From an uncultured Chloroflexia bacterium (GTDB taxonomy: Bacteria > Chloroflexota > Limnocylindria > Limnocylindrales > CSP1-4): DNA of 31,884 nucleotides. How positions within the stretch are numbered: the stretch's first letter is position 1; each line of letters begins with the position of its first letter. Under the pieces are notes generated by a model that was given only the letters and a program-made list of their open reading frames with translations, did no database searches and was not told where the DNA came from. The stretch spans positions 1 to 31,884 of the forward strand of contig CAVVYR010000020.1 of NCBI GenBank assembly GCA_963752475.1. Direction: 5' to 3'. This document shows, piece by piece, positions 4,253 through 31,884 of this stretch. The position numbers and the translations under genes were made by a program.

Positions 4253-5593
4253 CTAGGGGACAATCCCGGTGCAGCGAAGCCACTGGTCGGAGAACATCAG
4301 CGTCATGTAGCCGATGGTGAGCACGACGGTGCTGGCGAGCAGCGCCGCCAAGACATAGGCCGCGAACCTCGTAGGGGTCCACCACCGTAGTCCGGTGATC
4401 ACGGCCAGACAGAAGGCCGCGACCAGCCAACCGGTCACGTTGTAGCGGAACTCGGTCACGGTCATGATGAGCGCCGCCTGACTGGCGAGGAAGAACAGGA
4501 CGAGCGAGCCGAGGACGAGCGAGCGTGGGCGCAGGAGCGTCCGGCGCCGGCGCCACAGGATGGCCATGGCGGTGACAGCCGCGGCGAGCGCGAACCCGGA
4601 GAACGCCGTCACGACCAGCCACTTCCGGTCCGCGTACGCGTCCATGTATGTGGGTGACGGCCGTGCGTCCCAGCCGGTGATGATGTGGTTCACCGCCACG
4701 GTCAGGCGCCACTGGGCATTGTCGGGAGCGATCTCGAGAGCGTCGTCGGGTCCGACGTAGCTCTGCTCCAGGGGAGAGAAGAAGAGCGGCTCCGATCCGC
4801 AGCCCGTCACATCGGTGCCGTATCGGAAGTAGAGCTGGCCCCGGTCCTGCTGATCCCGAGCGTTCTCGAACTGGAACAGCTCACCGACTACGAGCTGTGG
4901 CAGCGCCACGAGGCCCACGGCCGCGGCGAAGACGACGGGGAACAGCAGGGCCAGACGGCGGCTTCGCCACGCCACGATGGCGCCCAGACCCAGCACCAGG
5001 AGGCCCGCCACCACGGGAATCCACGCCAGCGCTGGGCGGGCCATCCAGGCCAGGCCGCTGGCGAGACCGAGCGCCGCCACGAGGACCCACGTCACGCGGT
5101 CCGAGCTGGTGCTCGCGCGCATCGTTCGGAAGGCGACGGCCACCACGAGCGCGAGGACGACGAAGAGGACCGGCACCGCGAGGCCTTCGCTCATGGTGTA
5201 GCCGTTCCAGGCCGCCGCCGGAATCAGGGCGACCGCCGCGAGCGGGACCATCGCCACGGCCACCGAGGCATGGGTCGACCGGCTGATGGAGACGGCCGCT
5301 GCCAGGACCGAGAGGTAGAGGAGCGCCGTTTGTACCAGCGCTATCTCGAGGCGTCCTCCGAGCCCCACTATCTGGAGTAGCGCAAGGAAGGCAGCGTAGG
5401 CGTAGTTGTGGACGTAGAGGATGTCCGGATCGCCACGGACGATGCTGTCGGCTTCCAGCTGATAGGCGACGGCATCACAGCACTGGGGCGCACTCGACGT
5501 CGTGGCGGCGAGGACGAAGCCGGCGACGACGAGCACCGCCACGACGGCGCGCGCCAAGTACTCGACGCTGCGCGCCCACCGGTCACTGGACAT
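4253..5593 (-). CDS. Polytopic membrane protein, GT-C-like glycosyltransferase (paralogue 1)
   Basis: About 11 hydrophobic segments; Asp in the first external loop (PQCCDAVAY), then SE.LA.P and WM.RP motifs reminiscent of the ArnT/PMT-like GT-C fold. Colinear paralogue at 13685-15022; next to a polyprenyl-P GT2. Confidence 0.7.
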   Translation of the reverse strand: MSSDRWARSVEYLARAVVAVLVVAGFVLAATTSSAPQCCDAVAYQLEADSIVRGDPDILYVHNYAYAAFLALLQIVGLGGRLEIALVQTALLYLSVLAAAVSISRSTHASVAVAMVPLAAVALIPAAAWNGYTMSEGLAVPVLFVVLALVVAVAFRTMRASTSSDRVTWVLVAALGLASGLAWMARPALAWIPVVAGLLVLGLGAIVAWRSRRLALLFPVVFAAAVGLVALPQLVVGELFQFENARDQQDRGQLYFRYGTDVTGCGSEPLFFSPLEQSYVGPDDALEIAPDNAQWRLTVAVNHIITGWDARPSPTYMDAYADRKWLVVTAFSGFALAAAVTAMAILWRRRRTLLRPRSLVLGSLVLFFLASQAALIMTVTEFRYNVTGWLVAAFCLAVITGLRWWTPTRFAAYVLAALLASTVVLTIGYMTLMFSDQWLRCTGIVP

Positions 5594-5599
5594 CAGAGC

Positions 5600-5608
5600 A
5601 CGTTAACA
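5600..5608 (-). promoter_or_regulatory. Putative extended -10 of a leaderless transcript (TGt-TAACGT-N6-ATG)
   Basis: Minus strand reads TGT TAACGT GCTCTG ATG(5593). Confidence 0.55.
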
Positions 5609-5662
5609 GCGCGGATCGAGCCTCGCGCCGCTACTTCGCCCGCCCGCGTGACCACCGCCTAG

Positions 5663-6823
5663 CTGTAGTTCCCGGGGTTAGTGAGACATCGGGTCGCAGG
5701 GGTATCTAGCGTTGCCGGATGACACGCTCCGACCGGCACCGTCGTCCACTTCGCAACCGATACCAGGAGGGACCCGGGTTCCTCTTCCTCGCCACGAGCG
5801 GCGGACGGCCGCCGGGACCGCCGCAGCGTGAGGACCTCGAGGGCCTCCGGTTCCGCATCCGCTGCGTCCGGACCGCCCTCACCGAGGGCATCGCCGCGGC
5901 CCTCGCGCTCGGGGCCAGCCGAGCCAGCCTCCATCGCTGGCGACGACGCTACGCGGACGGTGGCATCGAGGCCCTGCGCCACGAACGGCGCGGTCCGGTC
6001 CCGGAGCGGCTCCCGGCCCCGATCGAGCGGGCGGTCATCGTGGTGCGCCTCCTGACGTACTGGAACAGCAAGCGCCTCGCCGCCGAGTTCACCCGTCGGG
6101 GCATCTACCCCTTGCGCCACCACGCGGTAGACACGCTGCTCGGCGAGTACGGTGCCGCACGGCCCGGGGTCCACCGCCCACGTGGCCCCGCGTACGAGCG
6201 CTCCCGGCCCGACGAGCTCTGGCACATCGACATCAAGGGTCCCTTCTGGCTCCGACGGTCGGAGCACGAGCGCACGAAGGTCTGGATCGTCGGGCTCGTC
6301 GACGACCACAGCCGCTACCTCATCGGCCTGCGGGTGCTGCCCCGGCCGGCCACCGAGCCCATCCTCGCCTGGTTCGACGAGTGCCTCGAGCTGGTGGGCA
6401 TCCCGCTCGAGGTCATGAGCGACAACGGCAGCCCCTTCGCGACCTGGATGCCGGGGGTATTGACGCTCTTCGGCAAGACCCTCGAGCAGCTGCGCATCCG
6501 CCACGTCCGAACGCAGGTCAACTCGCCCTGGACGAACGGCAAGATCGAGCGCTTCTGGGGCGTGCTCCAGGCGGAGTTGCTCGACCGCGAGCTGTTCCCC
6601 ACGCCCGAGGCCGCGGACGAGGGACTGATGCGCTTCGCGGTCTACTACGACTATCACCGGCTCCACGGCGAACTCGACTGGCAGACTCCCGCTGAGCGCT
6701 ACGACGGCACGCCCTTCACCGATCGTGGCTTCGAGCACGTGCCAGCGCTCGAGCACCTCCAGGACTGGCTGACCGAGTTGATGGCCGCATGACCCGATGT
6801 CTCACTAACCCCGGGAAGGACAG
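5663..6823 (+). mobile_element. IS481-family insertion sequence, 1161 bp, 33-bp terminal inverted repeats, CTAG direct repeats
   Basis: IRL 5663-5695 CTGTAGTTCCCGGGGTTAGTGAGACATCGGGTC; IRR 6791-6823 reverse complement CTGTCCTTCCCGGGGTTAGTGAGACATCGGGTC (2 mismatches). CTAG at 5659-5662 and 6824-6827. Single DDE transposase inside. Confidence 0.95.
5719..6792 (+). CDS. IS481-family DDE transposase (HTH plus integrase core)
   Basis: HTH (GASRASLHRWRRRY), YERSRPDELWHIDIKG, VDDHSRY, SDNGSPF, PWTNGKIERF, YYDYHRLH...TPAERY. Stop overlaps IRR; TAGCGT-N6-ATG upstream. Confidence 0.95.
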   Translation: MTRSDRHRRPLRNRYQEGPGFLFLATSGGRPPGPPQREDLEGLRFRIRCVRTALTEGIAAALALGASRASLHRWRRRYADGGIEALRHERRGPVPERLPAPIERAVIVVRLLTYWNSKRLAAEFTRRGIYPLRHHAVDTLLGEYGAARPGVHRPRGPAYERSRPDELWHIDIKGPFWLRRSEHERTKVWIVGLVDDHSRYLIGLRVLPRPATEPILAWFDECLELVGIPLEVMSDNGSPFATWMPGVLTLFGKTLEQLRIRHVRTQVNSPWTNGKIERFWGVLQAELLDRELFPTPEAADEGLMRFAVYYDYHRLHGELDWQTPAERYDGTPFTDRGFEHVPALEHLQDWLTELMAA

Positions 6824-8584: not shown

Positions 8585-9889
8585 CTACCGACCGCCGTTC
8601 CTCCGGCGGGACGGCCAGATGCTCCGTCCGGTAGCAGCACCGTGGCGCAGGTAGTGCACGAGCGGGTTCATCCCGGCTGCGGCGACGTCGCCATGCTGCA
8701 TCAGGTACATCGTCGTGCTGAACCGCGGACCCGGATCCCGACCTTCGCTGGCGCCGCTCATGAGGTAGTGGATCGCTGGATCGCGGGCCACCGCGACGAC
8801 GTCGGGGTACTGCTCTCGGTACCAGCGGGCGTCGAACAGCGGCGAGGCCGCGAGGAGACGGCGGTCCAGCACGGCGCGCGCCAGCATCACCGTCGCTGCC
8901 GGCAGCCTGAGCGGATTGCGCAGCAAGTGCCGGAACCGCGGGAACCGCGGTTGGGCCGCGACCGCGAGCGAACGCTTCGCACGCTCCGCGATGGCCGACT
9001 GGCGAGCGAGGCTGGAACGCAGCATGGCGACCGACTCCTGGAGCTCGACGACCTCCCGCTCGGCCTGCCGCCTGGCGTGTTCGGCGCCTTCGGCGCCCTG
9101 CCCGGCCTCCTCGGCCGCGCGTCGCCACTGATCACGCTCGATCGCAGCCCCGAGTCGCGCATAGAGACGCTGGATGCTGACCGCCTCCTCGGCATCGTCG
9201 GCGAGCTCGACGAGGGCCGAGATCGCCGACGACGGCGCCTCCCCCACCGCGACGACACCGAGCCCCTGACCATGCGGGAGCTCGAATGCGGCATAGGTCT
9301 GCTGGAGCTCTCGCATGAAGCGACCGGCGCTGAACTCGTCCTCGCGAGCGCTGGTGCCATGGAGGAGCAGCACGCCACTCGACGACAGCTTGGACGCCCA
9401 GCTCTCGAAGTCGTGCATGAGGTCGGCGTAGAAGCGTCGACCATCGAGGTGGAGCAGGTCGACCGAGCCATCCGGGATCGTTGCCGGTGGTTCGCCACCA
9501 GCATCGTGGAGGAGCGTGGAGAACGCGCTGAAGCGTCGATCGTGCAGCTCGGTGAAGGCGTGTCGTGCCGATACCTCGCGCTCCTCGAGCTCTCGCGCGA
9601 CGGCGCAGCAGCGTGTTCCCGTGGCGTGGCGTTGGACCGCCTGGCAGGCGGCCGCGTACGAGAAGCCGATCGCTGCCCCGACTTCGACGTAGGTGCGCGG
9701 CCGCTGCGCACCGATGAGCCAGAAGAGGAAGGGCGCATGGGGCTGCCAGGACGACGCCTCCCAGAACTCCGGCTCCCACAAGGCAGAGGCGTCGACGAGC
9801 CCTGACACCGCCAGCGACTCCGCGAGTGCCGAGATCGGGTCGGTCTGGTTACGGGATCCATCGATGGGGCGTTCACCGGGCGGAAGCAC
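8585..9889 (-). CDS. Class I SAM-methyltransferase-like (Methyltransf_24 type) domain, coiled coil and two C-terminal FD..WY...YPDV/HYL..G repeats; start uncertain
   Basis: W..HAPF.FWL...RPR..VE.G...GFSY...CQAV, DGS.DLLH.DG, HDFESW..KLS; heptad region; LFDARWYREQYPDV...DPAIHYLMSGASEGRDP then FST..YL..H.DV....NPLVHYLRHG. GTG 9889 lies 6 nt after CATACT; the ORF is open to 9988. Confidence 0.8.
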   Translation of the reverse strand: MLPPGERPIDGSRNQTDPISALAESLAVSGLVDASALWEPEFWEASSWQPHAPFLFWLIGAQRPRTYVEVGAAIGFSYAAACQAVQRHATGTRCCAVARELEEREVSARHAFTELHDRRFSAFSTLLHDAGGEPPATIPDGSVDLLHLDGRRFYADLMHDFESWASKLSSSGVLLLHGTSAREDEFSAGRFMRELQQTYAAFELPHGQGLGVVAVGEAPSSAISALVELADDAEEAVSIQRLYARLGAAIERDQWRRAAEEAGQGAEGAEHARRQAEREVVELQESVAMLRSSLARQSAIAERAKRSLAVAAQPRFPRFRHLLRNPLRLPAATVMLARAVLDRRLLAASPLFDARWYREQYPDVVAVARDPAIHYLMSGASEGRDPGPRFSTTMYLMQHGDVAAAGMNPLVHYLRHGAATGRSIWPSRRRNGGR

Positions 9890-10042
9890 CACCACAGTAT
9901 GGCCCGCGGCGACCCACTCGACCCGGACGAGCAAGGCGTCCGGCAAGCGATGGTGCAGTCGCGGTCCTGCTAGCCTCGAGCGAGCCAAGCTTCAACGACA
10001 GGCCCCACCGATGACCGCTCGACGACGGCGAACCAGCGCCGG

Positions 10043-10759
10043 ATGAGGATCCTCTGCTACGTCAACCACTATTACGGTGAGCCCATCGCCTTCAGCGGGC
10101 GATCGACCGATAGTGACGCCGAGGGCCGGCACCGTGCGGTCAGCGCGTGTCTCGAGGGCCTTCGCCGGATCGAAGGTGCCGAGGTCCAGGTCTGCGGCAT
10201 CAGCGGACGATCGCTCGAGCCGGTTGACATCGACTTCCCCGGGCTGCGAAGCACCCCCAGCCTGCTCGTCTATGAGTCACTCGCGCACATGGCCGGACGC
10301 ATCCACGAGGGCTTCGACTACTTCATCAACATCGAGGACGACATCCTACTCCCAGCGGAGACGCTCGCGAACACGGTGGAGTTCGACCGCGAGAGCCTGC
10401 CCAACGAGGTCTTCCTGCCCAACCGCCTGGAGTACGACGAGGCCGGACAGCCGTACTGTCTCGATTGGCGAGCCATGCCGGGCTGGACGAACCAGCGACG
10501 ACGCTTCCGCGGCCGCGAGATCCGCGTGGCCCACAACCCGCACTCGGGTGTGCTCATCCTCTCGCCCGGGAAGTTCCGCTACGCGCTCAGGCATCTCGAC
10601 GCTGGCCACCGTGGTCGTTCCATCGGCGCCGAGATGGCCTCCGCCTACGCCTACTACCACAGCCCGTTCTGCCTCTATCGCTCCTACGACGACCTGTCCT
10701 TCCATAACGTGTTCCACCTGGACCAGTGGGCCGGCCCCAGGTCACCGTCGGTGGCATGA
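10043..10759 (+). CDS. Uncharacterised protein with GT-A-like EDD motif
   Basis: FDYFINIEDDILL, FLPNRLEY, NPHSG.LILS; strong GC3 codon bias; ATGA overlap with the next gene. Confidence 0.7.
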   Translation: MRILCYVNHYYGEPIAFSGRSTDSDAEGRHRAVSACLEGLRRIEGAEVQVCGISGRSLEPVDIDFPGLRSTPSLLVYESLAHMAGRIHEGFDYFINIEDDILLPAETLANTVEFDRESLPNEVFLPNRLEYDEAGQPYCLDWRAMPGWTNQRRRFRGREIRVAHNPHSGVLILSPGKFRYALRHLDAGHRGRSIGAEMASAYAYYHSPFCLYRSYDDLSFHNVFHLDQWAGPRSPSVA

Positions 10760-12612
10760 ACGTCTTCGTCCTGACCGCCGGCCGGACCGGGTCGACGACG
10801 TTCGCCCGGGCCTGCGAGCACATCACCAACTACACCGCCGGACACGAGACGCGCTGGGACGTGCTCGGTCCCGAGCGACTGACCTATCCGGACGACCACA
10901 TCGAGGTCGACAACCGCCTCAGCTGGCTCCTGGGCCGGCTCGATGCGGCCTACGGCGACGACGCCATGTACGTGCGCCTCGTGCGGAACGAGGCCGACGC
11001 CGCGGCCAGCCACGCCATGAGGATCGAACACGGAATCATGCGGGCCTACCGGGAAGCGATCATCTGGCAGGTCCCTGAGCACGTCGACCCGCACGATGTC
11101 GCGACCGACTACCTGGCCACCGTCGAGAGCAACATCGCGCTGTTCCTGCGGGACAAGCACCACGTCCTTCGCTTCCGTCTCGAAGAGGCGGCAACGGACT
11201 TCGAGCGCTTCTGGCGCTTCATCGGCGCCGAGGGTGACTACGAGGCTGCGGTCCGCGAGTTCGGGGTGCGCCACAACGCCTCCACGCGGGCCACCTCGGC
11301 GGCGGACACGCCACGGGTGTCGAAGGTGAACGCCAGCGAGCTGGCGACCAGGCCGGTCATCGAGGTGCCGGAGCCTGACCGCACGGACACCTCGCTCGAG
11401 TTCGCCTGCCTGATGCGCGAGCTTGCCCCGTGGGCGGACGGAGCGCCGGGTGGACCCGTCGTCGAGCGCCCGATCCGGTTCGGCTTCCGGACCCCGAACG
11501 CCCGGGTGCAGCATCACGAAGTCTGGGATGGTTTCTACCCGCTGTACTTCCTGACGCGCAATGGCGGACCCCTCTTCAACTCAGCCTACGATCAGGCACG
11601 CATCCGGTTCGGATTCCCGTTCCCCCGGCTCGTGCGCGACTACTTCGTCCAGCGGGCCGCTGACTTCGGGATCGACATCGAGGTCGAGGCGGAGCTGACC
11701 GAAGTGCGCCTCGACCGGCCGACGACGGGGCACGTGCTCGCCTTCGGGGGCGGCAAGGATAGCCGGCTCGTCCTGGGGACACTGCGCGAACTCGGGATCG
11801 AGCCGACGCTGGTCACGGCCCAGGATGGCCTCGTCGTCCCACCGCCGGGAGCTCTCGTCGTGGAGACGATCGACGGTGCCCTGGCCGATCGCCTCATGCC
11901 CGCCATCATGCAGCTCGGTCGCTTCCTGTACGTCGGGAACGGCCTGGGCGAGGTCCACCGGCGAGATCCGTGGCAGCAGTACTTCGACACGGGCGCGCTC
12001 GTGGCGCGCACGCAGCTCCGACAGCTGCTCGCGCAGCTGGGAGTGGACATGGAGATCGTCGCGCCCGTCTCGGTCCTGCCCCACAACATCATCCAGCGGA
12101 TCCTGCATGACCGCTACCCGGAGCTCTACGCCGGACAGACGAGCACGCACCCAACCGACCGCAACGACAAGAACCTGCGCGTCGCCCTCCTGCGGCTGTA
12201 TCACGGCCTCCCCCACTTGGACGCCATCGAGCCGGGTCTGTTCCCCCAGCTGTTGCGCGAGTTCGTCGCGCGACAGCTGGCCATGCCGCACGAGCACGGC
12301 TACCGCAACGGCAACGAGACCGTCGAGCTCGAGATGCGATCAATCATCTGGCGCACGCGCCACCACCCGGACCTGGCGGATGTCAGCGACGACATCCCCG
12401 CGAGGTGGGAGGGCCCGTGGATCGACTATGTCCATGACTACGTCGACCCGCAGCTCGACCGACGGTTCCTGGACCTCTATCGCCGATTCGCCCCATTGGC
12501 CAGCGAAGCTGATTTCAAGCGTACCGATCCGCCGGATCACCACGTAGCGAACCGCCATGAGCCGATCGGTGGAGGCCCGACCGGTCGATCGAGGCCACGG
12601 AGGCACGCCTGA
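10756..12612 (+). CDS. Two-domain protein: N-terminal sulfotransferase-like P-loop domain and C-terminal PP-loop (adenine nucleotide alpha-hydrolase-like) domain
   Basis: MNVFVLTAGRTGSTTF at the N-terminus (ATG 10756 overlaps the upstream stop); low-complexity linker after RHNAS; HVLAFGGGKDS with GGGKDS at 11746-11763. Confidence 0.75.
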   Translation: MNVFVLTAGRTGSTTFARACEHITNYTAGHETRWDVLGPERLTYPDDHIEVDNRLSWLLGRLDAAYGDDAMYVRLVRNEADAAASHAMRIEHGIMRAYREAIIWQVPEHVDPHDVATDYLATVESNIALFLRDKHHVLRFRLEEAATDFERFWRFIGAEGDYEAAVREFGVRHNASTRATSAADTPRVSKVNASELATRPVIEVPEPDRTDTSLEFACLMRELAPWADGAPGGPVVERPIRFGFRTPNARVQHHEVWDGFYPLYFLTRNGGPLFNSAYDQARIRFGFPFPRLVRDYFVQRAADFGIDIEVEAELTEVRLDRPTTGHVLAFGGGKDSRLVLGTLRELGIEPTLVTAQDGLVVPPPGALVVETIDGALADRLMPAIMQLGRFLYVGNGLGEVHRRDPWQQYFDTGALVARTQLRQLLAQLGVDMEIVAPVSVLPHNIIQRILHDRYPELYAGQTSTHPTDRNDKNLRVALLRLYHGLPHLDAIEPGLFPQLLREFVARQLAMPHEHGYRNGNETVELEMRSIIWRTRHHPDLADVSDDIPARWEGPWIDYVHDYVDPQLDRRFLDLYRRFAPLASEADFKRTDPPDHHVANRHEPIGGGPTGRSRPRRHA

Positions 12613-12654: not shown

Positions 12655-13629
12655 TTGACCTTCGTCTCGTACGCTCAGAACTTCGAGGACGTGATGCTCC
12701 GCCGTGCGCTGGCGGACGTGCAACCAGGGTTCTACATCGATGTGGGAGCGCACGACCCGGTGGACGACTCCGTGACCAAGTCGTTCTATGACGCTGGCTG
12801 GCGCGGGATCAACATCGAGCCGGTCGAGCAGCGCATCGAAGCCCTGCGACGCGACCGACCAGAGGATCTCAACCTGCAGGTCGTCGCCGGAGACACGCCG
12901 GGTGTCGTGCGCTTCTACGAGGTCATCGGCACCGGATTGTCGACGACCGACGAGGAGACCGCCCGGCGCTACGAACAGGAGGGAACGCACGAAATCCGAG
13001 AGCTGACGGTGGCATCGCGTCCACTCACCGATATCTGTCGTGAACATGAGGTCGGAGACATTCACTTCCTGAAGATTGACGTGGAGGGATCGGAGCATGC
13101 GGTCCTGGCGGGCCTCGATCTCACCGTGTTCCGACCGTGGGTCATCGTAGTGGAGAGCACGCTCCCTCGGACGCAGACGGACAACTCCGACGCCTGGGCG
13201 CCGCTCGTCGAAGCTCACGAATACGAGGAGGTCTGGTTCGACGGACTGAACCGCTTCTACCTCGCGGCTGAGCACTCGACCCTGAAGGCGGCGTTCGCAG
13301 CACCACCGAACTTCTGGGATGACTTCGAGACGGCGCGAGAGCGTCGGGCCACCGAGCTCGAGGCAGAGTGCGCCGAGCTCCATCGACGCCTGACCCGTGC
13401 CCAGCACCACGTCGAGGACCATCTGCGGCGATGGGAGGCTGACGTCGCCAAGCTGCAGGCGTCGCTCCAAGGGGCGCAGGCGTCCCGTGAGGCATGGGAG
13501 AAGCGGGCGTTCGATGCCGAAGCCGAGCTGCAGGTGCTGATGCAGTCGTACTCCTGGCGAACGACGGCACCACTGCGGAGGGCAGGCTCGCTCGTGCGCA
13601 GGCTGGCACATCGGCCCAAGGAGGCGTGA
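12655..13629 (+). CDS. FkbM-family methyltransferase with coiled coil and SYSWRTTAPLR tail
   Basis: SYAQNFEDV.L.RAL, GFYIDVGA.DP..DSVT, GWRGINIEP, IHFLKIDVEG.E, FRPWVIVVE, FDGLNRFY; GGAG upstream of the TTG start. Confidence 0.92.
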   Translation: MTFVSYAQNFEDVMLRRALADVQPGFYIDVGAHDPVDDSVTKSFYDAGWRGINIEPVEQRIEALRRDRPEDLNLQVVAGDTPGVVRFYEVIGTGLSTTDEETARRYEQEGTHEIRELTVASRPLTDICREHEVGDIHFLKIDVEGSEHAVLAGLDLTVFRPWVIVVESTLPRTQTDNSDAWAPLVEAHEYEEVWFDGLNRFYLAAEHSTLKAAFAAPPNFWDDFETARERRATELEAECAELHRRLTRAQHHVEDHLRRWEADVAKLQASLQGAQASREAWEKRAFDAEAELQVLMQSYSWRTTAPLRRAGSLVRRLAHRPKEA

Positions 13630-30151: not shown

Positions 30152-30895
30152 TCACGAGCCCAATCGCGCGAGCGCTATCTGATGGAGTCGCTCGTCGAAC
30201 CTGTTCAGCTCACGAATCCGCTGTAGGACCGATGCGTCGATCGCCTGGGTGGCGGGTCGCTTGGGGTTCGTGTTCTCGGATCCGACGAGCGGTAGCTCAC
30301 GCCCGACGACCCGACCCATGGCCAGCGCGTTCTCAGGCATACGCTCCGTCGCCAAGAGCGCGGCGAAGTCACGGTCGATGTTGGCCATCGCTTCGTCAAA
30401 TAGTGTATCCGTGCAGCCACCAAACGGGATGTCACGACGGCCTGTGAGATTCCGGACCGCGAGATTGTCTGCGGGCAAGCGAGATTCCCCGAAGATCCAG
30501 TCTTCAAGCGAGGTGCGCCGCAATCGCAACCGCAGCCGCTCCCGGTATCCCTTGCTGCCGAACCGGACGCCAGGCAAGTTGAGGAAGTGGTAGTAGAGCG
30601 AAACCACTCGCTCTACTGGGTCACGCAGCAGGGTGGCGTAGCGGCAAGGCCGCTCGACCTGGCGGTGGATGCCATAGCTGAAGTGGCCCATGACGAGCCT
30701 GAGGCCACTCCTGACCTCCGCCGGCAGTTGGTTGAACTCCTGCCGCGTCATGGCGCCGTCGAGGTCTGAGGCGGCATAGACGAGGGCTGTGACGGGGGGA
30801 TCGAAGGCCCGAAGAAGCGAGGTCCGCAATGCCGTGCCACCGGTCTTCGGCAAGTGAATGAAGACAAGCGTGTCGTCCCCCAACGTCCCGCTCAT
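30152..30895 (-). CDS. Sulfotransferase family 2 protein
   Basis: FIHLPKTGGT (5'PSB), GHFSYG.H, LRDPVERVVSLY (3'PB), LNRFD.RL; ATGA overlap with the upstream paralogue. Confidence 0.88.
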   Translation of the reverse strand: MSGTLGDDTLVFIHLPKTGGTALRTSLLRAFDPPVTALVYAASDLDGAMTRQEFNQLPAEVRSGLRLVMGHFSYGIHRQVERPCRYATLLRDPVERVVSLYYHFLNLPGVRFGSKGYRERLRLRLRRTSLEDWIFGESRLPADNLAVRNLTGRRDIPFGGCTDTLFDEAMANIDRDFAALLATERMPENALAMGRVVGRELPLVGSENTNPKRPATQAIDASVLQRIRELNRFDERLHQIALARLGS

Positions 30896-31659
30896 CGCAG
30901 CCGCTCGGTCATCGCCTCGTAGAAGGCGTGATCCAAGTGGTTCAGCTCGCGCAGGCGACCGACCGTGGTTGGGTCCAACGAGCTGACCGGAATGCGCTCA
31001 CGGTTGACATTCAGGTAATCGAGCTCCGGGATCGAGGTCCTAAGGTCCTTCTCCAGCAGCCGCGCTGACTCCGCCAGCCGCTCCTGGACGAGGACCCGCA
31101 CGAAATGCTCGTCGACATGCTTGATGGCCTCCTCCAGCATGTCGTCGGTGCAGTGGCCGAACGGGACAGTCGTCCGGCCGGCGATACGGCGCACGATCTC
31201 ATTGTCGGCCTCGAGCCGTTGGAGGCCGAAGCCCCAGTCCTCTAGCGTCATCTGCTGGTCGATGATGGCTCGTCCCTCCGCGCCGGCCCGAGTGTCCGGC
31301 CGTAGCCCCGCGACGCGCCGGTAGTGATCGTAGTGGGACGCGATCCGGTCGATCGGATCGCGGATGATCGTCACGTAGCGCGAGGGCCGCGGGACATCGG
31401 CGTGCAGACCGTAGTGGAAGTGACCCGCGATGAAGCGCAGTCGCTGCCGATCGGCAGTGGGAAGCCCGGCGAAGTCCTCGATGTGGATCGATGGCGCTGG
31501 ACCTTGCCCTTCGTAGAGGAAGACTTGCTCTGACGGGGGATAGATCTGTGACAGCGAGGCCCGCAGGGCGGAACCAGCGGTCTTGGGGACGTGCAGAAAG
31601 AGCAGGGTCCAGTTGTGCCGGGGCCGGCGCCGGAACCGTCGCCGCATGAACTGCATCAT
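30892..31659 (-). CDS. Sulfotransferase family 2 protein (tandem paralogue)
   Basis: FLHVPKTAGS, GHFHYGLH, IRDPIDRIASHY, LNHLD..FY. Start at GTG 31662 or ATG 31659, just after TATCCT (31673-31668). Confidence 0.88.
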   Translation of the reverse strand: MMQFMRRRFRRRPRHNWTLLFLHVPKTAGSALRASLSQIYPPSEQVFLYEGQGPAPSIHIEDFAGLPTADRQRLRFIAGHFHYGLHADVPRPSRYVTIIRDPIDRIASHYDHYRRVAGLRPDTRAGAEGRAIIDQQMTLEDWGFGLQRLEADNEIVRRIAGRTTVPFGHCTDDMLEEAIKHVDEHFVRVLVQERLAESARLLEKDLRTSIPELDYLNVNRERIPVSSLDPTTVGRLRELNHLDHAFYEAMTERLR

Positions 31660-31884
31660 CACTGAACAGGATACGGAGGCCACGCCGAGAACGCTGACGG
31701 GCTATGCTCTGGTCGATGTCAGGACAGGCCCTGAGCGGGCGATCGGACAATTCGAGGGTGCCTTGGGCCCCACGCTGGCAGGCCTTGCTGTCAGTCACTG
31801 ACCCGCGCTGACCGCTGCCCGGGATGTCCTCCGCTCAGCCTGAGCTACCCGTCACTGCCATCGAGCCTGCGGATCGCTGGCCAG

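Follow-up and report, generated by a model that had tools for sequence, protein, structure and literature searches.

The window analyzed here is a stretch of 31,884 nucleotides (nt) from an uncultured Chloroflexia bacterium (GenBank assembly GCA_963752475.1, contig CAVVYR010000020.1, positions 1 to 31,884), and the gene in question is an open reading frame (ORF) whose 618-amino-acid (aa) product, designated P0001, joins a sulfotransferase-like part (N part) to a PP-loop ATP pyrophosphatase-like part (C part) through a short linker. The gene and its features are as follows.

10756..12612, + strand: whole fused ORF, 618 aa, without internal stop (protein P0001)
10756..11286, + strand: N module, residues 1-177, putative minimal sulfotransferase-fold domain (model, Foldseek, homologues, and hhalign)
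10780..10797, + strand: predicted 5'-phosphosulfate-binding loop, G9-R10-T11-G12-S13-T14 (alignment)
10984..11010, + strand: predicted 3'-phosphate-binding motif, R77-x7-S85 (both residues conserved in ≥90% of 50 sequences)
11287..11355, + strand: linker, S/T/A/P-rich, residues 178-200, not present in homologues
11356..12513, + strand: C module, residues 201-586, putative QatC-like PP-loop ATP pyrophosphatase (model and structure search)
11746..11763, + strand: PP-loop, G331-G-G-K-D-S336, a variant of SGGxDS (alignment)
12511..12513, + strand: TTT run, one base shorter (at 12513) in a contig of run X2; the C-terminus depends on the frame that follows

The frame is listed as open over 10726..12612 (+), and translation confirmed both the ORF and the two motifs quoted in an earlier note on this DNA, VFVLTAGRTGSTTF being residues 3-16 of P0001 and VLAFGGGKDS residues 327-336. 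The start given in that note holds: ATG 10756 overlaps the stop codon of the preceding ORF, 10043-10759 (ATGA), and P0001 begins with MNVFVLTAGRTGSTTF, the same start as in stand-alone homologues of the N part. The 3' end given there is doubtful. Removal of base 12513 makes the protein stop at residue 596 with ...PIRRITT (stop at 12547), like the usual C-terminus of the family, and the shifted frame coincides with the listed ORF 11825..12547. Considering that the X2 contig is one base short and that the shifted frame ends with a family-like tail, residues 587-618 are doubtful; this 32-residue tail probably reflects either a one-base indel artefact or a strain variant. With P0001 as a whole, Pfam gave no match at E ≤ 10, NCBIfam gave no meaningful one, a PDB sequence search returned nothing useful, and PDB profile searches matched only fragments around the PP-loop and the 3'-phosphate motif.

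The AlphaFold model of the N part (alignment of 50 sequences) reached a predicted local distance difference test (pLDDT) score of 94.9, and all 24 of its Foldseek matches in the PDB at E ≤ 0.001 were sulfotransferases, including the CurM sulfotransferase (ST) domain, tyrosylprotein sulfotransferases, heparan sulfate 3-O-sulfotransferases, and the 195-aa SgdX2. The match to 4gbm had an E value of 7.7e-5 and a TM score of 0.67 (query-normalized), and that to 8y9p a TM score of 0.53 (target-normalized). In the same 50 sequences, G9 and R10 were invariant and G12 and S13 were conserved in ≥90%, and the GRTGST loop aligned with the start of the Sulfotransfer_3 domain encoded at 5064-5954 of locus L032. 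The R-x7-S spacing is typical of sulfotransferases, and we take GRTGST as the 5'-phosphosulfate loop and R77 and S85 as the 3'-phosphate motif of 3'-phosphoadenosine 5'-phosphosulfate (PAPS)-dependent sulfotransferases. Residues H48, E50, and E31 are also conserved in the family and are candidates for the catalytic base.

The only Pfam signal of the N part was to Sulfotransfer_3 (E value of 0.19, residues 63-102 against model positions 119-157), below the cutoff of that model (12.4 versus 27 bits); similar sub-threshold matches occurred in 18 of the 50 family members, and hhalign gave a probability of 96% between the family profile and a Pfam-positive Sulfotransfer_3 protein. Stand-alone homologues numbered 904 in one length class (99-315 aa), the best 120 of which, from Proteobacteria and other phyla, were 56-68% identical over almost the full N part. 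Identity across phyla was 45-68%, an unusual degree of conservation. The N part thus shares its fold and both PAPS-binding motifs with Sulfotransfer_3-type and small sulfotransferases such as the CurM ST domain and SgdX2, whereas it differs from the Sulfotransfer_3 type in its length of only ~178 aa, in its sub-threshold Pfam score, and in its frequent fusion to other domains (GT2, GT4, methyltransferase, Rhamnan_synth_F, and Sulfotransfer_1/3). Taken together, the modeled fold, the two motifs, and the profile match indicate that the N part is most probably a minimal, divergent PAPS-type sulfotransferase belonging to a large stand-alone family of ~178 aa that is missed by Pfam, which bears out the sulfotransferase-like character claimed in the earlier note.

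The C part had been read in the same note as a PP-loop domain, and its model (alignment of 52 sequences, pLDDT of 94.8, predicted template modeling score of 0.93) indeed adopts an adenine nucleotide alpha-hydrolase fold, leaving that assignment unrefuted. The closest solved structure was QatC of the QatABCD anti-phage system (PDB 9y01 and 9y02; Z of 15.4, root mean square deviation of 4.7, 295 residues aligned). Realignment of the Foldseek candidates placed residues 9-356 of the model against residues 2-457 of the QatC chain at 12% identity, so that the match reaches beyond the core into the N-terminal extension and some of the C-terminal helices. The next matches were Cap9 of CBASS and QueC (PF06508), both with a Z of 8.8 (9nto_B and 3bl5), which share the Rossmann-like PP-loop core; this core (model residues 131-297) also matched TtuA, TilS, NAD synthetase, ThiI, LarE, and argininosuccinate synthetase, the whole series running from a Z of 8.8 to 5. 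Only 4.4-4.8 was reached by PAPS or adenosine 5'-phosphosulfate (APS) reductases and by 1zun_A (Z of 4.8), which belongs to the entry for an ATP sulfurylase heterodimer and is the chain that we take to be CysD. Within the 52 sequences, G333, K334, and S336 of the PP-loop were invariant, the first Ser of the canonical loop was Gly in most, and the Asp was Glu in some; moreover, the GGGKDS stretch aligned to the PP-loops of MJ0690 and TtuA. Outside the loop, H253, W257, D258, K472, W551, and H560 are invariant as well.

In PMC13376578 and PMC13279940, QatC is described as belonging to the QueC family and as being extended at both termini, with zinc held by four cysteines and an ATP site made of an SGGxDS loop and a downstream lysine, and PMC13329287 gives the zinc motif C(x)8CxxCxxC as the definition of the QueC family. 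The C part resembles QatC in its PP-loop core, N-terminal alpha/beta extension, and C-terminal helices, but neither C(x)8CxxCxxC nor the four-cysteine zinc site of QueC and QatC was found in it; it contains a single cysteine, and the family alignment has no conserved cysteine column. It further differs from QueC and Cap9 in carrying ~130 extra residues before the core and ~120 after it. None of the 52 family members had a meaningful Pfam match, nor any match to PF06508 at E ≤ 1, and the PADLOC models gave no match at E ≤ 1 to P0001 and three relatives. Because the zinc cysteines are not conserved and Pfam and PADLOC matches are lacking, the C part is placed outside the QueC family; as modeled, it appears to be a new, rare PP-loop family with a QatC-like three-part build, ~400 aa long when it stands alone.

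The C part shares with CysD, the small subunit of ATP sulfurylase, its superfamily and a link to sulfate metabolism, and the PP-loop of this genome's own CysD reads SGGKDS; unlike CysD, it showed only a weak fold match (Z of 4.8), no PF01507 match, and no CysN alongside, and the source genome has true cysDN besides it. PP-loop N-acetyl sugar amidotransferases of the WbpG, PseA, and LfnA type are encoded in glycan clusters. The C part resembles them in being a PP-loop enzyme of a surface-glycan cluster, but in a comparison at the sequence level, no such NCBIfam model matched P0001 at E ≤ 10. For MurL, which the earlier note had listed among PP-loop enzymes, a review (PMC8788868) reports no known conserved domains.

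The likeness to QatC brings up the alternative that the C part works like QatC or Cap9, modifying the N-terminus of a partner protein in a defence or regulatory system, with the glycan neighbors being incidental. QatC is by far the best structural match, one that reaches beyond the core on both sides, and the C family is rare and patchy and often has a lower GC content at third codon positions (GC3) than its neighbors, as mobile accessory genes do. Nevertheless, the missing zinc cysteines and PADLOC matches argue against this alternative, as does a clustering of the neighbors that showed no conserved small partner gene. Unlike QatC, the C part recurs beside sulfotransferase and glycan genes; no Qat partners were seen there, qatA, qatB, and qatD not having been searched for by name. 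We regard a role of this kind as very improbable.

The two parts were found joined only in the window. Among 52 other proteins of near-matching length recovered by a word-indexed search and aligned by BLASTP, 21 spanned only residues 1 to ~210 and 31 (391-422 aa long) only residues ~185-594, whereas none spanned both. An exhaustive HMMER search of 1.84 billion representatives returned 903 matches, the best 150 of which each matched one part only, and a search of longer proteins for fused forms of the C part, which is weak evidence, found none. Thus, the sequence comparisons support the architecture being unusual, with no second N+C fusion among the proteins searched. Within the same genus, the C part occurs in 4 of 25 genomes and the N part in 6 of 25. 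In the nearest relative, G021 (locus L011), the two are separate, adjacent genes on the same strand, the N part ending in TAG and the C part beginning at a GTG 22 nt further on; in G017 and G018, they lie on different contigs. Moreover, the linker carries GTGA at ~11326-11329, with GTG in frame and TGA in the +1 frame, which suggests a relic of an overlapping stop and start and hence an origin of the fusion from a neighboring gene pair. As a side observation, the N gene of G021 (L011, 6579-8312) is readable only with three +1 frame changes, and its C gene has an in-frame TGA, so that this is either a decaying copy or a product of indel errors in a long-read assembly.

The earlier note had itself raised the concern that the fusion might be an artefact absent from reads and relatives. 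It is indeed absent from relatives, G021 having separate genes, and the organism could in principle have two adjacent genes in the same way, with the fusion being an assembly or indel error; the probable one-base indel at 12513 in the same gene and the GTGA of the linker, which would fit overlapping stop and start codons after a one-base shift of the upstream frame, both lend this some weight. On the other side, contigs from run X1 are 100% identical to pieces of the gene, including 11136-11307, and a contig of 151 nt from run X3, which belongs to another study, aligns colinearly with the window over 11198-11348, covering the end of the N module and the linker, with five mismatches and no gaps; its one listed internal change (11315 G>C, R187 to P) makes no stop. 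The run contigs agree with the window over parts of the junction region; no single piece covers the whole gene, and 11509-11817 and some other stretches are uncovered. On balance, we consider an artefactual fusion to be quite improbable.

The association of the two parts was then seen to extend beyond this gene. In all, 34 loci carrying the C family were taken from genomes and metagenomes, 10 of which were shorter than 3 kb. An N-type sulfotransferase gene lies in the flank of the C gene in L011, L016, L037, L035, L032, L046, and L033; after near-identical pairs were merged and the window was added, six independent loci remained (the window, L011, L016/L037, L035, L032/L046, and L033), spread over at least four separate branches of the C-family tree. 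Gene order varies among them, from fusion and tandem genes to convergent genes (L016/L037), an N gene 1.9 kb upstream of the C gene (L035), or an intervening methyltransferase gene, and in L032/L046 and L033, a 296-aa Sulfotransfer_3 gene homologous to the N part directly adjoins the C gene. The N and C families were each found in none of 400 other genomes sampled from the phylum, and the association is meaningful because both families are rare. In total, 6 of 13 C-bearing genomes have the N type. A search of 301 genomes from one Acidobacteriota order turned up the C family in two, including one new genome (G183) in which the genes around it are uninformative.

Glycan genes are frequent in these surroundings. 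Relatives of GT2 occur near the C gene in seven other loci and of GT4 in five, genes for Wzx, Wzy, YdjC, GT4, and methyltransferases lie near it in L032 and L033, and an FkbM-type methyltransferase, as found beside the fusion, is also near it in L032. Except for the GT2 gene at 1179-2282, the window genes had no close relatives adjoining the C genes of L002-L022, the few tblastn matches falling in the outer flanks of L011, L018, and L019. Two further neighbors of C genes, the DUF6395 protein of L038 and the AAA_33 protein of L034, were set aside: profile comparison related neither of them to the N family, and the L034 protein is not recognizably an APS kinase. The DUF6395 protein (L038, 1-762) ends 4 nt into the C gene on a low-GC marine contig, and a literature search for DUF6395 returned nothing.

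The other genes of the window also point to surface sugars, with GT2, DegT, FdtA, and methyltransferases among its glycan genes. The genes flanking the fusion and the further sulfotransferase genes are as follows.

10043..10759, + strand: upstream gene, 238 aa, in no Pfam or NCBIfam family; stop codon overlapping the start codon of the fusion
12655..13629, + strand: FkbM-family methyltransferase, 43 nt past the fusion stop on the same strand
8585-9988, - strand: Methyltransf_24 methyltransferase, on the other flank of the fusion
30152-30895 and 30892-31683, - strand: tandem sulfotransferases, Sulfotransfer_2 and Gal-3-O-sulfotransferase-like, two further sulfotransferases in the window

The product of the upstream gene contains an EDD stretch, at a guess a glycosyltransferase-type metal site, and none of its relatives were seen near the C genes of loci L002-L022. 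Both flanking methyltransferases (8585-9988 on the - strand and 12655-13629 on the + strand) have long, charged, coiled-coil-like C-terminal tails, and such tails bring to mind the chain-terminating enzymes of O-antigen pathways. G021 also carries at least three tandem sulfotransferase copies (L011, 14454-16311) of the same kind as those at 30152-31683 of the window. Between 15449 and 22132 (- strand) lies an acylated amino sugar sub-cluster, containing FdtA/WxcM with a hexapeptide acyltransferase, GT2, a DegT aminotransferase, an AMP-binding enzyme, KAS III, a metallo-beta-lactamase fold protein, and a short-chain dehydrogenase/reductase.

Sulfate activation in the carrier genomes was examined as well, given that the earlier note had pointed to the lack of cysDNC genes in the window and had suggested that the protein could activate its own sulfate donor. 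The first point is correct for the window, where tblastn with the genome's own CysD, CysN, and CysC gave no match, but not for the genome, which has cysD-cysN on contig 26 and cysC on contig 1; no Sat-type sulfurylase was seen in this 89% complete genome. Five other C-bearing genomes were tested, all five having PF01507 and APS kinase matches and two having Sat. Thus, all six tested carrier genomes, including the source, have canonical sulfate activation, and the C family therefore fills no gap in this pathway. The idea of a self-activated donor is weakened for the same reason. In addition, APS alone would not serve the N part because it keeps the motif for the 3'-phosphate of PAPS; what remains in favor of the idea is an APS kinase gene upstream of the C gene in one lineage.

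The best-supported account of these observations is a bifunctional enzyme that tailors a sulfated surface glycan and pairs a PAPS-using sulfotransferase with an ATP-dependent adenylating enzyme, the link between the two being tight enough to keep them together across phyla. At about even confidence, we propose that the gene arose naturally and recently by the joining of two enzymes that recur as a functional pair in the tailoring of sulfated glycans. In the N part, the GRTGST loop would grip the 5'-phosphosulfate of PAPS, and R77 and S85 its 3'-phosphate, the PAPS being supplied by cysDN and cysC elsewhere in the genome. In the C part, ATP would be bound at GGGKDS and split to AMP and pyrophosphate, the AMP would be placed on an oxyanion of the substrate, and a nucleophile would then displace it. 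QueC and Cap9, according to PMC13279940 and PMC13329287, adenylate a carboxylate that is then attacked by ammonia or an amine, and the nearest characterized folds thus favor, by analogy, carboxylate activation and amide formation by the C part. The other suggestion of the earlier note, adenylation of a glycan carboxylate, would be in keeping with these folds and with the glycan surroundings. The preferred substrate would be a carboxylate on a glycan or a lipid-linked intermediate that is sulfated by the N part, so that both parts may act on one molecule. This carboxylate-to-amide step is put forward tentatively, the general statement of a bifunctional tailoring enzyme being rated above it. The data show the folds, motifs, module borders, genomic association, and glycan context, whereas the use of PAPS, the cleavage of ATP, the acceptor, and a substrate common to both parts are inferred.

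Several observations weigh against this proposal. Next to the fusion, no gene for the biosynthesis of a carboxylate-bearing sugar was recognized. With at least one indel being probable in the assembled gene (12513), the fusion rests on the window, the partial contigs of 100% identity, and the single 151-nt contig from another study. The other 7 of the 13 C-bearing genomes have no N-type gene, one of which, G049, has only a 49-residue C fragment. In several Alphaproteobacteria, as well as in G017 and G018, the C gene has only unrelated housekeeping or amino-acid genes around it, and because such lone copies exist, often with a lower GC3 than their neighbors, the C gene does not always need a glycan cluster or a neighboring sulfotransferase. 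The reaction of QatC itself is stated to be unsolved in PMC13279940. Finally, in L036, an APS kinase gene stops 3 nt short of the C start, and a degraded copy occupies the same place in L017, an arrangement that carboxylate amidation does not account for, L036 and L017 being one lineage in the C tree. In L017 (7382-9300), the opening ~20 codons of the polyphosphate kinase gene located after the degraded APS kinase gene and the C gene are also present in front of this pair, and it looks as if a two-gene cassette was inserted into the start of ppk with duplication.

The APS kinase neighbor and the exclusive link to sulfotransferases keep sulfate-centered chemistries open. The C part might be an ATP sulfurylase of the PP-loop type that needs no GTPase partner and converts ATP and sulfate to APS, thereby providing glycan sulfation with a donor supply of its own in the way that NodPQ serves NodH. 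In favor of this, the C family has recurrent, specific partners only in the PAPS pathway, namely, the N-type sulfotransferases in six loci and the APS kinase of L036 and L017; CysD shows that a PP-loop enzyme can adenylate sulfate, and the chain we take to be CysD, 1zun_A, is among the fold matches (Z of 4.8). However, cysD or sat together with APS kinase is already present in all six tested C-bearing genomes, the fold is far nearer to QatC (15.4) and QueC/Cap9 (8.8) than to CysD (4.8) by Z, and a fused APS source would not feed the N part directly, given its 3'-phosphate motif. Moreover, no APS kinase occurs in the window or in the loci with sulfotransferase neighbors, the link coming from one lineage only. 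We thus consider a sulfurylase role unlikely.

A second sulfate-centered possibility is that the C part acts after the sulfotransferase, adenylating the sulfate ester; displacement of AMP by ammonia, an amine, or a hydroxyl would then yield a sulfamate or a sulfate diester. The genes stay close through changes of order and in the fusion, which suggests successive steps on one group, and the reaction would parallel the carboxylate-to-amide conversion by PP-loop enzymes. To our knowledge, no enzyme has such an activity; a full-text literature search for PP-loop, sulfotransferase, and polysaccharide together gave nothing related, and the lone C genes speak against a strict dependence on a sulfotransferase, making this the most improbable of the readings considered. 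Framed more broadly, the C family could be a third kind of sulfate-handling adenylyltransferase, whether by GTPase-free APS synthesis or by sulfate-ester adenylation to a sulfamate or diester, which together with the N part would form a portable, self-contained sulfation module moving between phyla; we regard this broader idea as rather doubtful.

With the bifunctional tailoring enzyme as the preferred reading, the finding brings to light two conserved families that are undescribed and unseen by domain libraries, a minimal sulfotransferase of ~178 aa and a QatC-built PP-loop enzyme of ~400 aa. The fusion and the repeated neighborhood provide a Rosetta-stone style link of an ATP-dependent step to glycan sulfation. 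The C family is also a relative of the QatC scaffold in a metabolic setting and, because the reaction of QatC itself is unsolved, could help define the chemistry that this scaffold supports; if the sulfate-activation reading were true, it would represent a new route to activated sulfate. More generally, unrelated bacteria also carry the N and C parts as separate neighboring genes, which points toward a two-step chemistry, as yet unstudied, for sulfated surface sugars.

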